Below, piece by piece: positions 1,632 through 5,102 of a stretch of 64,000 nt of DNA. The stretch's first letter is position 1, and every line of letters begins with the position of its first letter. The DNA comes from an uncultured bacterium (GTDB lineage: Bacteria > Acidobacteriota > Thermoanaerobaculia > Multivoradales > JAHZIX01), in assembly GCA_965368975.1 (NCBI GenBank), contig CBDUPA010000015.1, positions 64,001 to 128,000 of the forward strand, written 5' to 3'. Under the pieces are notes generated by a model. The model had not been told where the DNA came from, did no database searches, and saw nothing but the letters and a program-made list of their open reading frames with translations. Position numbers and translations under genes: made by a program.

Positions 1632-2906
1632 ATGCCCGAAACCGCCACCACTTCGACTCTCCATCTCGACTCTCGTCCCAGTTCCAACGGACTCGAGGGC
1701 GTGATCGCCGCCAGCACTCGCCTCAGCCGAGTCGACGGAGCCGCTGGCCGCCTGACCCTCGCCGGCTTTGCCGTCGAGGAACTGGCCCCCAGGGCCAGCT
1801 TCGAGGAGGTCACGTACCTGCTGTGGACCGACCGCCTTCCCACCTCGACCGAGTTACAGCAACTGCGTGCCGACCTGGCGCATCGCCGCTGCTTACCGGC
1901 AGCAACACTGGCATGGCTGCGGCATGCCGCAGCAGCCAAGGTCGCACCCATGGACGCGCTACGCACCGCTGCCGCCACGGTGTGCGCCGAGACAGCGGAC
2001 ATCTCCGACCCGCGCGACCAAGCACGCACTCTGCTGGCCGTGCTGCCGGTGGCTCTGGCCACTTATGAACGCCTGCGCCGTGGCGGTCGTTCTGGCGAGG
2101 ACGCAGCGCCGTCACAAGCCGAAATTGAAGCCCTGGGCGACGCCGACCTGGCCACCGGCTTCCTGACTCTGCTCGACGGCCCTCCGTCAACCAGGAGCAT
2201 CAGGCCACCGCGCCCACAGCGCGTGCGGGCGCTGACCACCTACCTGAACACCGTCGCCGACCACGGTCTCAACGCTTCGACCTTCACCGCTCGGGTGATC
2301 GTCGCCACCGGCTCGGACATGGTGTCAGCCGTCACCGGAGCCATCGGTGCGCTCAAAGGCCCGCTGCACGGCGGCGCACCAGGTCCCGCACTCGACGATC
2401 TGCTGGCGATCTCTGCAGGCGCGAGTGCCAGTACCGGCTCCAGTACGGGCGACGGCGACACTGCCGCCTACGCCGAAACCTACCTACGCGCCAAGCTGGC
2501 ACGCGGCGAGCGCCTGATGGGCTTCGGCCATCGCGTCTACCGCGTGCGCGATCCGCGCGCCGAGGTGCTGAACGCGGCCGCCGAAGCCTGGCTGAGCAGC
2601 GCCGGTGGTGATCGCGAACTCCTGCGCCTGGCTCGCGAGGTCGAGTCGACCGCGCTGCGCCTGCTCAGCGAGCACAAGCCGGACCGCAAGCTGCACACCA
2701 ACGTCGAGTTCTACACCGCGCTGCTGCTCCACAGTCTGGGCCTACCGTCCGACCTCTTCGCCCCCGTCTTCGCCCTCGGTCGTACCGCCGGCTGGATCGC
2801 GCACGCCCTGGAACAACTCGAGTACGGCCGCCTGATCCGGCCGAGCGCCACCTATATTGGTGAGGAAGGCCGCTCGTGGCAGCCACTCGGTTCGCGGACC
2901 GCGTGA
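1632..2906 (+). CDS. Citrate synthase / 2-methylcitrate synthase
   Basis: GLEGV, ADHGLNASTFTAR, GPLHGGA, MGFGHRVY, NVEFY, GWIAH motifs; ATG at 1632 preceded by GGAGGA. Confidence 0.9.
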   Translation: MPETATTSTLHLDSRPSSNGLEGVIAASTRLSRVDGAAGRLTLAGFAVEELAPRASFEEVTYLLWTDRLPTSTELQQLRADLAHRRCLPAATLAWLRHAAAAKVAPMDALRTAAATVCAETADISDPRDQARTLLAVLPVALATYERLRRGGRSGEDAAPSQAEIEALGDADLATGFLTLLDGPPSTRSIRPPRPQRVRALTTYLNTVADHGLNASTFTARVIVATGSDMVSAVTGAIGALKGPLHGGAPGPALDDLLAISAGASASTGSSTGDGDTAAYAETYLRAKLARGERLMGFGHRVYRVRDPRAEVLNAAAEAWLSSAGGDRELLRLAREVESTALRLLSEHKPDRKLHTNVEFYTALLLHSLGLPSDLFAPVFALGRTAGWIAHALEQLEYGRLIRPSATYIGEEGRSWQPLGSRTA

Positions 2907-3472
2907 AGTGCGGAGCCACTGTGGGCCAGGTGCGCCAACAGGTGCACGATACGGCGTGGATTGCCCTCAGCGGCGAGCGTTAGGGCCCGGGCGGTTTCTG
3001 AGAGCAGCAGTGGATCGCCGGTTGCCGTGTCCATCCCAGCCAACAGCTCCTGGCAATCCTCCACCGAGAAGGGGCGCAGACGTAAGGTGAAGAAATAATT
3101 CGGCATATAGGCATCGATGGTCTCGACGTTGGTCGCCAGAACGACCACATCTGCCGGGCCGTGCAGCTCGACCAAGCCGCGGCAATCCTCGGGCCGGTCG
3201 TATTCATCGAACAGCAGTAAGCGTTGGCCACCGCGCCGGGAAGCGTGCAACGAGCGCGCGATGAGAGACAGCCTCGACGTGCGATCGGCCGGTGGACAGC
3301 CTTCGAAGAAGTAGACCGAACAGCGGTCGGCGAAGGCATCGCGCAGCTGCCGCAAGACAGCCGTCTTGCCACTGCCCGGCGTCCCCACCAGGATCACGCC
3401 TCGGTCCAGCCGGCGGTCGAGCAGATCACGAACAGCTGCTTGCGCCAGCTTGAAGTTGGTCGTTGCGATCAT
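2852..3472 (-). CDS. Small AAA-type P-loop ATPase (206 aa)
   Basis: Walker A GTPGSGKT, Walker B LLLFDEYD, C-terminal LRPFS...GNPRRI motif; overlaps the end of the upstream radical SAM gene. Confidence 0.7.
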   Translation of the reverse strand: MIATTNFKLAQAAVRDLLDRRLDRGVILVGTPGSGKTAVLRQLRDAFADRCSVYFFEGCPPADRTSRLSLIARSLHASRRGGQRLLLFDEYDRPEDCRGLVELHGPADVVVLATNVETIDAYMPNYFFTLRLRPFSVEDCQELLAGMDTATGDPLLLSETARALTLAAEGNPRRIVHLLAHLAHSGSALHAVREPSGCHERPSSPI

Positions 3473-4586
3473 GTCGCACCACCTCGTCCAGGGCGTCGAG
3501 GACAGGAAGCTCCTCGTACGCGATATGAGACATCAGCCCAGCGAGCTGGCAGCTTTCTGGAGTAACCGGCTCGCCGTGGCAAAGCTCCTCGACGTAGCGA
3601 TCGTGAGGACAACCACCGTGGCACAGGTCATACCAGCGGCAGTGCCGCCGACAGCTCTCTTGCCAAGCTCGAATCTGCCGCGCGAACGCACGCGTTCCGG
3701 GATGCTGACGCAATTGCTCCACCGTCACCTGCCGGATGTTGCCGATCCGGTAGGAACTGTCGCCAACATACTTGTCGCAGTGGCCAACGCTGCCATCCGG
3801 TTCGACGGTGAAGTATCTTCCGGCACAGTTGGCCGACAACATGCACACCGTGGGGGCTCTTCCCTGGATCGCCTGCACAATGCTGTCGATCTCGCGGATC
3901 TTGAACTCACGATCGTCGTCCTGGCGCCAGATGTCATAGAGCTGCTCCAAGAACGAGGTATAGGCGGCTTGATCGACAAAGTCGTCGACCAGCATCTTGC
4001 CTTCCCGTAGATCGCGATTGTTGGGCCGCACCGGCAGCAGGCCAAAGCTGTTCAATCCAATCGATTTGGCCCATTCGAGCAGCGCTCGCGGACCGAGACG
4101 ATAGAGATCTGTCGTCAGGACGATCAACGCTCCCGCGTGGACCCCGTGGCGATCCAGGCGCGCGAGCGCCCCCAGTACCTCGTCGTAGGAACCCGTGCCA
4201 TTGGCCTTGCGCCGGGAAATATCGTGGTTGCTGCGTGGACCATCGAGGGAGACACCGACCTGAATACCAAAGCGACGAAACAGATGACACCAAGCATCGT
4301 CGACCAAAGTACCGTTGGTTTGCAACGCATTGTTAATCCGGTGTTCGGCCGTCGCCAGGCGGGCCTGTAGCCACAGCGCCTTGCGAAAGAAGTCTCGCCC
4401 CATGAGCAAAGGCTCGCCACCATGCCACATGAACTCCACCTGCCGGTCCGCGTCCAGTGCCTTGCGGATCAAGTGGACGAGCGTCGGAAACTCCATCGAC
4501 AAGTGGCGTCCACGGGCACGCCAATCGTGACAGTACGTACAGCGCAGGTTGCAGCGGCGCGTCACTTTGACGATGTAGCCAGCCAT
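3426..4586 (-). CDS. Radical SAM/SPASM peptide maturase, DarE/DynA-like (anaerobic sulfatase maturase superfamily)
   Basis: CNLRCTYC, WHGGEP, QTNGTL, VSLDGP; SPASM Cx5Cx15C and Cx3Cx5Cx3C; CDKYVG and GGCPHDR motifs; ATG at 4586 with a G-rich SD. Confidence 0.9.
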   Translation of the reverse strand: MAGYIVKVTRRCNLRCTYCHDWRARGRHLSMEFPTLVHLIRKALDADRQVEFMWHGGEPLLMGRDFFRKALWLQARLATAEHRINNALQTNGTLVDDAWCHLFRRFGIQVGVSLDGPRSNHDISRRKANGTGSYDEVLGALARLDRHGVHAGALIVLTTDLYRLGPRALLEWAKSIGLNSFGLLPVRPNNRDLREGKMLVDDFVDQAAYTSFLEQLYDIWRQDDDREFKIREIDSIVQAIQGRAPTVCMLSANCAGRYFTVEPDGSVGHCDKYVGDSSYRIGNIRQVTVEQLRQHPGTRAFARQIRAWQESCRRHCRWYDLCHGGCPHDRYVEELCHGEPVTPESCQLAGLMSHIAYEELPVLDALDEVVRHDRNDQLQAGASSCS

Positions 4587-4633
4587 CGTATCCCCCCAGT
4601 GTCGATCACGCGAGTGGAGGTCAGGATCTGTCT

Positions 4634-4665
4634 CAGCCCCGGCCCGCGGCTGCCGGCCGGGGCTG
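4634..4665. terminator. Strong intergenic stem-loop between putative precursor and maturase genes
   Basis: Perfect 11-bp inverted repeat CAGCCCCGGCC (4634-4644) / GGCCGGGGCTG (4655-4665), 10-nt loop, no U-tract. Confidence 0.6.
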
Positions 4666-4685
4666 CAGGCGTGCACCACGCCGTG

Positions 4686-5102
4686 TCAGTTCACTTCGAT
4701 CTCGAAGTCCTGCAGGGCTTGGATCTCGTCAGCATTGAATCGGACGCGTCCGAGGTTCTGGAGGAACGCCTCGCGCCGGAACACTACTGGCAAGTCGAAG
4801 ATCGACTCGTAGCGGTAGGCCCAGATGCTCAGGTTCCACCAGCTCTCGCTCCAACCACACGACGCTTTACCGCCGATCTGGCTGGCCAGAGACTCGATGC
4901 GACTGAGAAATCCCGGAACGACTTCGCCCTTGTCGAGGCGGATGTGGGCCATCGGCTCGAGCGCGGGGCGCGTTCCGGCCTTCTCGTGCGCGGCCATGCC
5001 GAGCGCTATCTTCAAGCGCTCCTGGCCGGCCTGCTCGACAAGCTCCGAGTCCTTCAAGGCTTTCGCGATCTCCACAATCGACATTTGAGGTGCGTGTGCC
5101 AT
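4686..5102 (-). CDS. Putative RiPP precursor (138 aa) with internal aromatic core WSESWWNLSIWAYRY
   Basis: ATG at 5102 with strong SD AGGAAGGAG; directly upstream of and co-oriented with the rSAM gene; all 4 Trp and both Tyr of the protein cluster in 15 residues after a GG motif. Confidence 0.7.
   Translation of the reverse strand: MAHAPQMSIVEIAKALKDSELVEQAGQERLKIALGMAAHEKAGTRPALEPMAHIRLDKGEVVPGFLSRIESLASQIGGKASCGWSESWWNLSIWAYRYESIFDLPVVFRREAFLQNLGRVRFNADEIQALQDFEIEVN

Follow-up and report, generated by a model that had tools for sequence, protein, structure and literature searches.

A candidate Trp-modifying two-gene cassette, comprising a DarE-related radical SAM/SPASM enzyme and a member of a conserved family of long Trp-rich proteins, in an uncultured acidobacterium

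We analyzed a 64,000-nucleotide stretch of contig CBDUPA010000015.1 (positions 64,001 to 128,000, forward strand) from an uncultured bacterium of the Acidobacteriota, assembly GCA_965368975.1; this whole stretch is referred to here as the window. Within it, a gene for a 138-amino acid (aa) Trp-rich protein is followed by a gene for a 386-aa radical S-adenosylmethionine (SAM) enzyme with a SPASM domain. A preliminary description of this locus had proposed a new darobactin- or dynobactin-type system composed of a precursor, a hairpin, a DarE-like enzyme and an AAA ATPase. Our analysis revealed that the two genes are paired across phyla, that their products have diverged together and that a hairpin recurs in the spacer between them. 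The functional unit is most likely a two-gene cassette formed by this pair, and we consider it probable, at roughly 0.6, that the enzyme acts on the 138-aa protein by modifying its Trp-rich core. The locus pairs a maturase related to DarE with a long precursor of a new family, and belongs with neither the darobactin nor the dynobactin clusters.

The three co-oriented minus-strand genes reported in the preliminary description were all confirmed (Table 1). Its further observations on the pair also held, namely the strong Shine-Dalgarno sequence and single aromatic cluster of the 138-aa open reading frame (ORF), the perfect hairpin that follows this ORF and the assignment of the enzyme, for which both the radical SAM domain (PF04055, 75.0 bits, cut-off 29.5) and the SPASM domain (PF13186, 34.0 bits, cut-off 21.5) scored above their cut-offs. 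Transcription runs from a 716-aa ORF to the 138-aa ORF, the radical SAM/SPASM gene and a 206-aa P-loop gene, with a gap of 110 bp between the first two and a spacer of 99 bp between the 138-aa ORF and the enzyme gene. GGGGGGA precedes the ATG of the enzyme gene, and the ribosome-binding site of the 206-aa gene is GAGGTGG. The G+C content at third codon positions was well above that at second positions in all four ORFs, the pattern of coding frames in a GC-rich genome.

The family of the 138-aa protein was recognized because the regions upstream of homologues of the enzyme were read. As a lone query, the protein matched only itself in a collection of 5.8 billion proteins, and a search against 40 relatives gave only two weak partial matches of 34 residues each, at the level expected by chance (E about 0.007). 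We sampled relatives of the enzyme from 80 genome loci and 80 metagenome loci (L numbers below), and added DynA loci from Photorhabdus genomes. Visual inspection, followed by a hidden Markov model (HMM), identified proteins of similar layout directly upstream of and co-oriented with the enzyme gene in 11 of the 80 genome loci (L004, L005, L006, L007, L009, L012, L020, L028, L033, L034 and L042) and 3 of the 80 metagenome loci (L084, L085 and L086), where many contigs were short and the upstream region lay off the contig end. These proteins measure 114-146 aa, a range that depends on the starts chosen for alignment. By tblastn, the 138-aa ORF was matched directly upstream of the enzyme gene in L020, a metagenome-assembled genome (MAG) of the Bathyarchaeia (E 5e-8). 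A leave-one-out HMM of 13 other members matched the window ORF over model positions 5-136 (E 1.6e-11), and this was its sole match among the 531 ORFs of the window. By these profile comparisons, the 138-aa ORF is no orphan but belongs to a conserved family; its conservation beside homologues of the enzyme, on which the preliminary description had staked its proposal, was found at 14 other loci.

By the titles of their records, the hosts of this family span five bacterial phyla and the Bathyarchaeia, with members in Bacteroidota, Alphaproteobacteria, Gammaproteobacteria, Actinomycetota, Chloroflexota, Spirochaetota and Bathyarchaeia (Chryseosolibacter, Larkinella, a Bacteroidetes MAG, an alphaproteobacterial MAG, Thiohalomonadaceae, Thermoleophilaceae, Caldilineaceae, a Spirochaetia MAG and Bathyarchaeia); the Larkinella humicola copy belongs to a cultured strain. 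No Pfam family was matched consistently by the 14 members, and no NCBIfam model was matched by the four members scanned. No description of the approximately 140-aa family was found in the literature, the coverage of which did not extend to supplements (precursor lists and networks) or subscription journals. Most likely, the proteins are precursors on which a Trp-crosslinking maturase acts, and form a new family, named in no curated protein-family library.

Alignment of the family revealed a common layout: the N-terminal region is helical, a 'K-G-x-x-V-P' element comes next, a conserved Gly precedes the Trp-rich core, and the C-terminal helix, in which one Glu is invariant (E126 of the window protein), bears the motif 'F-[ST]-x-E-E'. 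The core of the window protein extends from G83 to Y98 and contains W84, W88, W89, W94, Y96 and Y98; across the family, one aromatic column of the core alignment is invariant and another nearly so. Three core subtypes were distinguished. The first (L004, L084 and L085) reads G-W-[ED]-K-x-W-L-N-L-x-x-W-D-[RK]-x-W, and the window core is a divergent version of it; the second (L005, L007, L012 and L086) has three W-x-R motifs in a row; and in the third, W, G, D and C abound. An AlphaFold2 model of the 138-aa protein, built on a 14-row alignment (mean predicted local distance difference test score, pLDDT, 63.9), placed helices at residues 9-41 and 114-132. The pLDDT fell below 50 at residues 87-118, the core region, and in this model the core behaves as a flexible substrate segment would.

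The enzyme carries its CX3CX2C motif at C12, C16 and C19 and seven putative auxiliary-cluster cysteines (C248, C254, C270, C316, C322, C326 and C346), all of which except C254 were invariant among 22 homologues. Among its 814 homologues in the 5.8-billion-protein collection, the best were 44-46% identical and unnamed. When scored against curated NCBIfam models, it reached no cut-off: the values were 269.3 bits for DarW (cut-off 650), 266.8 for DarE (NF038005; 650), 246.9 for anaerobic sulfatase maturase (anSME, TIGR03942; 349.45) and 202.7 for DynA (NF041298; 450), followed by GrrM/OscB (160.7; 310), AmcB (149.5; 425), YhhB (145.8; 445), FxsB (142.2; 370) and XyeB (94.8; 450). A 33-row alignment revealed the signatures of the DarE side in the window enzyme, namely 'TRxCNLRCxYCHDW', 'CDKY' and 'CPHDRY', whereas the eight anSME rows compared had 'CYYLE', 'CDHF' and 'Cx2Cx5Cx3CPKDR' at the corresponding sites. 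The window enzyme has C-H-D-W-R after the cluster motif, CDKY, and C-x3-C-x5-C-x3-C-P-H-D-R, and so departs from the anSME signature. The ATG assigned here sits five residues before the first residue matched by the DarE model. The call for this gene in the public collection (P0002) is a protein of 356 aa beginning at Met31, 3' of CX3CX2C; the annotated enzyme is therefore too short and lacks the catalytic cluster site.

To place the enzyme among its relatives, two quick maximum-likelihood trees of 74 and 67 rows were built, with control rows that pass the curated cut-offs for anSME (L053 and L041, 426.6 and 428.7 bits), DarE (L013 and L030, 732.6 and 742.4 bits) and DynA (L183 and L185). In both trees, a branch with a Shimodaira-Hasegawa-like approximate likelihood-ratio (SH-aLRT) support of 98 separated the window enzyme, DarE, the daropeptide cluster-IV enzymes and several uncharacterized clades from the true anSMEs. 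The DynA rows of the 67-row tree fell on the anSME side of this split, on a long branch. The window enzyme is best described as a putative deep member of the DarE side that is not itself a DarE, a DynA or an anSME. Thus, the kinship with DarE suggested in the preliminary description stood in so far as the motifs and this split place the enzyme nearer DarE than true anSMEs; the kinship with DynA did not.

Other branches of the DarE side were also sampled. Four loci from Micrarchaeota MAGs (L038, L039, L040 and L059) encode DarE-side enzymes that are sister to the L028/L042 pair. At a further set of loci (L087, L089, L091, L098, L103, L014, L025 and L029; L093, L094, L105 and L115), the DarE-side enzymes are preceded by different Trp-rich ORFs of 65-117 aa. 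One group of these combines a leader of the 'E-x-L-D-x-F-x-x-K-L-x-x-W' type with a core at the C-terminus that contains W, and the other has cores made up largely of W and D; the upstream ORF of L087 weakly matched NF041299, 'DynW-associated RiPP peptide' (RiPP, a peptide made by ribosomes and modified after translation; 19 bits, cut-off 40). At 11 loci (L010, L011, L015, L023, L027, L032, L082, L088, L100, L101 and L106), two of them in Acidobacteriota MAGs, a gene of approximately 610-770 aa, longer in L082, precedes the enzyme gene; the enzymes of this set, seven of which are in the trees, are nearer DarE, and the upstream genes resemble a B12-binding radical SAM protein by eye only.

Several lines of evidence point to the pair as the unit. 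In all 14 other members, the gene of the 138-aa type immediately precedes a DarE-side enzyme gene in the same orientation, and the neighbourhoods of the pair have no other conserved gene, be it for a protease, a transporter or an ATPase. Several copies of the cassette adjoin integrase, transposase or toxin-antitoxin-like genes. The precursor subtypes track enzyme subclades in the 67-row tree, and the pairwise identities of precursor and enzyme are correlated (Mantel rho 0.678; over the 13 pairs, 1 of 5000 permutations reached this value). The precursor genes of the two Larkinella species differ at 13 of 429 nucleotides, with 10 of the differences at third codon positions and 3 amino-acid changes. 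Hairpins are usual between the precursor and enzyme genes of peptide-modification operons, and the spacer of the window folds with a z score of -2.89 (1 of 200 shuffles as good; no T tract follows the stem). Of the ten spacers folded, those of the window, L004, L005, L007, L012 and L033 had z scores of -2 or below (-2.0 to -6.1), and a strong hairpin was not seen in L009, L020, L084 and L085.

The assignment of the 138-aa protein as substrate, together with the chemistry, the sites and the fate of the product, is one that we infer, the mechanism by analogy with DarE. In the most likely scheme the enzyme would reduce SAM at the CX3CX2C cluster and abstract a hydrogen from an sp3 carbon within the core, approximately G83-Y98. 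That carbon would then be joined to a Trp or Tyr ring, giving a C-C cyclophane or, as DarE can, a C-O-C ether, and cross-linking would probably occur at more than one site of the core. The helical N-terminal part (residues 9-41) and the C-terminal helix around E126 may act as recognition or scaffold elements flanking the core, and the intergenic hairpin could keep the mRNA of the precursor above that of the enzyme. In the case of DarE, one enzyme makes both the ether and the C-C link on a Trp-rich core, and the outcome is governed by the residues in the third place of the motif (PMC9055067, PMC11851443).

A number of observations weigh against this proposal. The HMM scores place the window enzyme about equally distant from DarE/DarW and anSME, with a gap of 20 bits, and the enzyme of one family member (L020) scored higher as an anSME (258.9 against 245.1). 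Most DarE-side rows have CC at a site where the window enzyme has one Cys only; its branch is long (1.05-1.36) and its exact place inside the DarE side carries no support mark. When the window enzyme was held with 24 anSME rows, the log-likelihood was 19.63 lower and the approximately unbiased (AU) test gave P = 0.054, no rejection, so that an anSME placement formally stands. The window core reads W-A-Y-R-Y where its subtype relatives have W-D-R-x-W. Linkage alone would give the correlation between precursor and enzyme identities, which accordingly demonstrates co-inheritance across phyla and not function. A predicted complex of the enzyme and the 138-aa protein scored 0.58, compared with 0.00 for the best of three controls, with runs agreeing in at least 27% of contacts and a partner pLDDT of at least 43. 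Of 80 solved complexes, 58 reached the mark used for this score, as did 2 of 110 mismatched pairs, and among those passing, scores of 0.60 or below were given by only 7 of the 80 solved complexes and by both mismatched pairs; the prediction gives weak support for binding, and the low score counts on the other side. Finally, with no conserved protease or dedicated exporter, the release of a peptide is unexplained. For darobactin, the accessible text of PMC9055067 describes release by unknown host proteases, with no dedicated protease encoded.

The conserved helices at both ends of the family, considered together with the missing protease and exporter, point to a different outcome, in which the approximately 140-aa protein would be the uncut mature product instead of a leader-core-follower precursor, a small helical scaffold carrying an exposed Trp-rich loop stapled by the radical SAM enzyme. 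We regard this as possible, if rather less than likely. QhpD and QhpC provide a model for an uncleaved product: in that dehydrogenase operon a radical SAM/SPASM enzyme modifies a small protein that is kept intact, by means of thioether links to Cys. The window enzyme scored 82.7 bits with the QhpD model (TIGR03906, cut-off 453). If this alternative were true, the family would represent a new class of radical-SAM cross-linked mini-proteins, encoded by a mobile two-gene unit in bacteria and archaea.

Modification of the 138-aa protein itself must also be weighed against readings in which one of the two proteins has another role. That the protein is a partner of the enzyme, such as a chaperone, a recognition subunit or an immunity protein, with the real substrate encoded elsewhere, appears unlikely. 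It is long for a precursor and has predicted helices at both ends, accessory proteins needed by radical SAM maturases exist (WprC is an example in the accessible part of PMC11851443), and the complex prediction, though weak, bears on binding only. However, the sole strongly conserved and compositionally striking part of the protein is its flexible Trp-rich stretch, which is what the DarE clade uses as substrate in darobactin. No other conserved small ORF accompanies the pair, the 99- and 110-bp spacers cannot hold one, and different Trp-rich ORFs occupy the same upstream position at other DarE-side enzymes. We consider it still more doubtful that the enzyme is the anSME of this genome, which would generate formylglycine in sulfatases encoded elsewhere, next to an unrelated small ORF. 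No other gene of this genome comes near the window enzyme in its match to the anSME model (the next scored 70.7 bits), there are 21 matches to the sulfatase domain PF00884, the nearest solved structure is an anSME (4K37, E 2.2e-42; series 4K36-4K39), and the AU test leaves the placement unrejected. Length and two-cluster SPASM layout are likewise similar, and the enzyme retains the 'C-D' pair that follows the third auxiliary cysteine. Since PF00884 matches were present in 5 of 5 other cassette-bearing genomes tested, their distribution is no help in deciding the matter. Nevertheless, the enzyme misses the anSME cut-off, differs in the residues after CX3CX2C and in the Cx2Cx5Cx3C spacing of the SPASM cysteines, and is separated from anSMEs by the 98% split. 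None of the 21 sulfatase matches lies on its contig, consistent with the preliminary description, which had noted the lack of a sulfatase gene in the window. The genome also contains 27 matches to the formylglycine-generating enzyme (FGE) domain, one of them beside the best sulfatase match, so that an oxygen-dependent route to formylglycine is available. Further, an anSME would leave unexplained a Trp-rich neighbour that is retained across phyla and has no sulfatase motif.

The label given in the preliminary description, a darobactin- or dynobactin-type cluster, fared poorly. Such a cluster would produce a cyclophane antibiotic that binds BamA, with the ATPase as an extra component, and we consider it highly improbable here. 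The apparent position of the enzyme on the DarE side and the Trp-rich core are in keeping with it, and there are resemblances to DarE and DarA (darobactin) and the daropeptides of Enterobacterales: the enzymes appear to share a branch and have in common the 'TRxCNLRCxYCH.W', 'CDKY' and 'CPHDR' signatures, the enzyme gene follows closely on that of the substrate, putative in the window, the core is centred on Trp, and a single enzyme suffices, with no dedicated protease encoded according to the accessible text of PMC9055067. However, the DarE and DynA scores are far below their cut-offs, and identity to DarE in tblastn was 33-36%. The N-terminal extension of DarE, approximately 75 residues (model positions 1-76), is missing from the window enzyme, the match to which begins at model position 77. 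DarA is described in the same text as a 58-aa peptide with a C-terminal W-N-W-x-K/R-x-F core (PMC9055067), whereas the window protein has 138 residues, neither this nor a dynobactin-like motif, and a core in mid-protein that is followed by approximately 40 conserved residues including the C-terminal helix. No darBCD genes are present at this locus; the hosts of the cassette lie outside the Enterobacterales and include Actinomycetota, Chloroflexota and an archaeon, and the ATPase is not conserved with the cassette. DynA shares with the window enzyme, in the role proposed here, the character of a radical SAM/SPASM peptide maturase acting on an aromatic-rich core, but it lies on the anSME side of the split.

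Triceptide maturases (XyeB, GrrM/OscB, FxsB, YhhB and AmcB) and WprB offer a further comparison. They share with the proposed system the likely joining of an aromatic ring to an sp3 carbon and short repeated motifs, of which the three consecutive W-x-R motifs in one precursor subtype are reminiscent; they differ in that the triceptide maturase scores are all far below the cut-offs and the precursors belong to another family. On the DarE branch, only a small enterobacterial tip, the darobactins, has been studied, and the deeper branches pair with a distinct, conserved and much longer family of putative Trp-rich substrates. If the enzyme does modify the core, the family would offer new Trp cross-linking chemistry in a compact, easily expressed two-gene system, and it would help to relate the protein-modifying anSMEs to the peptide-modifying DarE. 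A 2026 peatland study reported automated 'darobactin-like' clusters in Thermoproteota MAGs (PMC13642348); judging from the accessible part of that study, loci of the wider clade have already been flagged in archaeal MAGs but not analysed. A 'darobactin-like' label should not be taken to denote an antibiotic that targets BamA.

We also examined the distribution of the cassette. A profile of the precursor matched 1 of 401 genomes from the phylum of the window, which was the window's own genome, and 1 of 401 genomes from the phylum of the Larkinella genome, again that genome itself; both sets are samples, and the cassette is rare in them. The G+C content of positions 2852-5102 was 62.0%, compared with 66.2% (standard deviation 2.1) across the window. 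This is the most AT-rich part of the 64 kb, with 2 of 247 sliding windows equally low, and the value of 28/60 G+C at positions 4261-4320, from which the preliminary description had argued that the enzyme gene is locally AT-rich, was exact. The lower G+C content and the patchy distribution fit sporadic horizontal spread, and the horizontal acquisition that had been suggested accords with both. No flanking direct or inverted repeats marking an insertion were found, and in a comparison aimed at an empty site the neighbouring citrate synthase was present in only 1 of 5 genomes of the same family, at 63% identity on a short contig.

The features in and around the cassette are listed in Table 1. A search of positions 2000-8000 against Rfam gave no match, no promoter-like site was found at the locus, terminator-like sites were weak, and a PADLOC scan returned only generic radical SAM and P-loop matches.

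Table 1. Position and strand of the cassette genes, their signals and adjoining genes, numbered from the first nucleotide of the window.
Feature	Position	Strand	Remarks
138-aa Trp-rich precursor-like ORF	4686-5102	-	start ATG at 5102; read from sequence
Shine-Dalgarno sequence GGAAGGAG	5109-5116	-	6 bases 5' of the ATG at 5102; read from sequence
Stem-loop between precursor and radical SAM genes	4634-4665	-	perfect 11-bp GC-rich stem
386-aa radical SAM/SPASM gene	3426-4586	-	ATG at 4586; Pfam, NCBIfam, alignments, trees
206-aa P-loop NTPase gene, AAA_16/AAA_22-like	2852-3472	-	overlaps the radical SAM gene by 47 nt
716-aa ORF, no family match	5213-7363	-	context only; upstream of and co-oriented with the 138-aa ORF
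Two tandem ADOP-family FtsX-type permease genes	7409-12377	+	divergent from the cassette; TIGR03434

The gene downstream of the enzyme had been described as an overlapping AAA ATPase. Its P-loop and the overlap were confirmed, whereas the AAA label was not secured, with scores just under the Pfam gathering cut-offs (AAA_16, 31.5 bits, cut-off 32.6; AAA_22, 26.6 bits, cut-off 27), so that P-loop NTPase of AAA_16/AAA_22 type is the safer name. No homologue of this 206-aa protein was detectable in the 5.8-billion-protein collection or in the 40 relatives, and it was not found in the 82 loci searched, which included 11 of the 14 related cassettes; for the remaining three (L084-L086), the ORF listings contained no comparable gene downstream. 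In a protein atlas, its neighbours were small AAA_22/AAA_16 proteins of Acidobacteriota and Planctomycetota (score 0.96), which we take as a lead only. The gene is probably co-transcribed with the cassette in this genome and, from these searches, appears to be lineage-specific and outside the conserved cassette. Of the synteny that the preliminary description had proposed to check, the precursor was retained at the 14 loci and the ATPase at none of the related loci.

On the other side of the cassette, the 716-aa protein had no Pfam, NCBIfam or PADLOC match, and its atlas scores, all below 0.8, were not meaningful. Its C-terminal 235 residues recur in 13 of the 40 relatives, in genomes not found to carry the cassette, and the gene therefore looks like one of the host lineage. 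The recurring region appears at 24-32% identity in frames of 365-599 aa, and the window's own genome contains one further copy; two ORFs containing it had no Pfam match. It is by this comparison a putative uncharacterized, lineage-specific domain.

Beyond this ORF, the tandem ADOP permeases scored 925.5 and 928.6 bits with TIGR03434 (cut-off 622.3), and the genome contains 35 such matches. We take this permease family to mark Acidobacteria, and its presence fits the probable acidobacterial host named in the preliminary description. The permeases are a possible candidate exporter for the cassette. Among the five radical SAM/SPASM loci of the genome that match the anSME model, three lie within 3 kb of an ADOP permease gene (window 7409-12377; G000 C4:317626-322735; G000 C18:35261-39264), and about 4% of the genome is estimated to lie within that distance of such a gene. 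The C4 locus further encodes a methyltransferase and a daptide-like HExxH protease. A role for ADOP permeases in export or immunity at the peptide-modification loci of this lineage is possible. Finally, two divergently transcribed genes of the citrate synthase family are present at 150-1502 and 1578-2906, and in the product of the first, a MerR/HTH_17 DNA-binding domain is fused N-terminally to that of citrate synthase.

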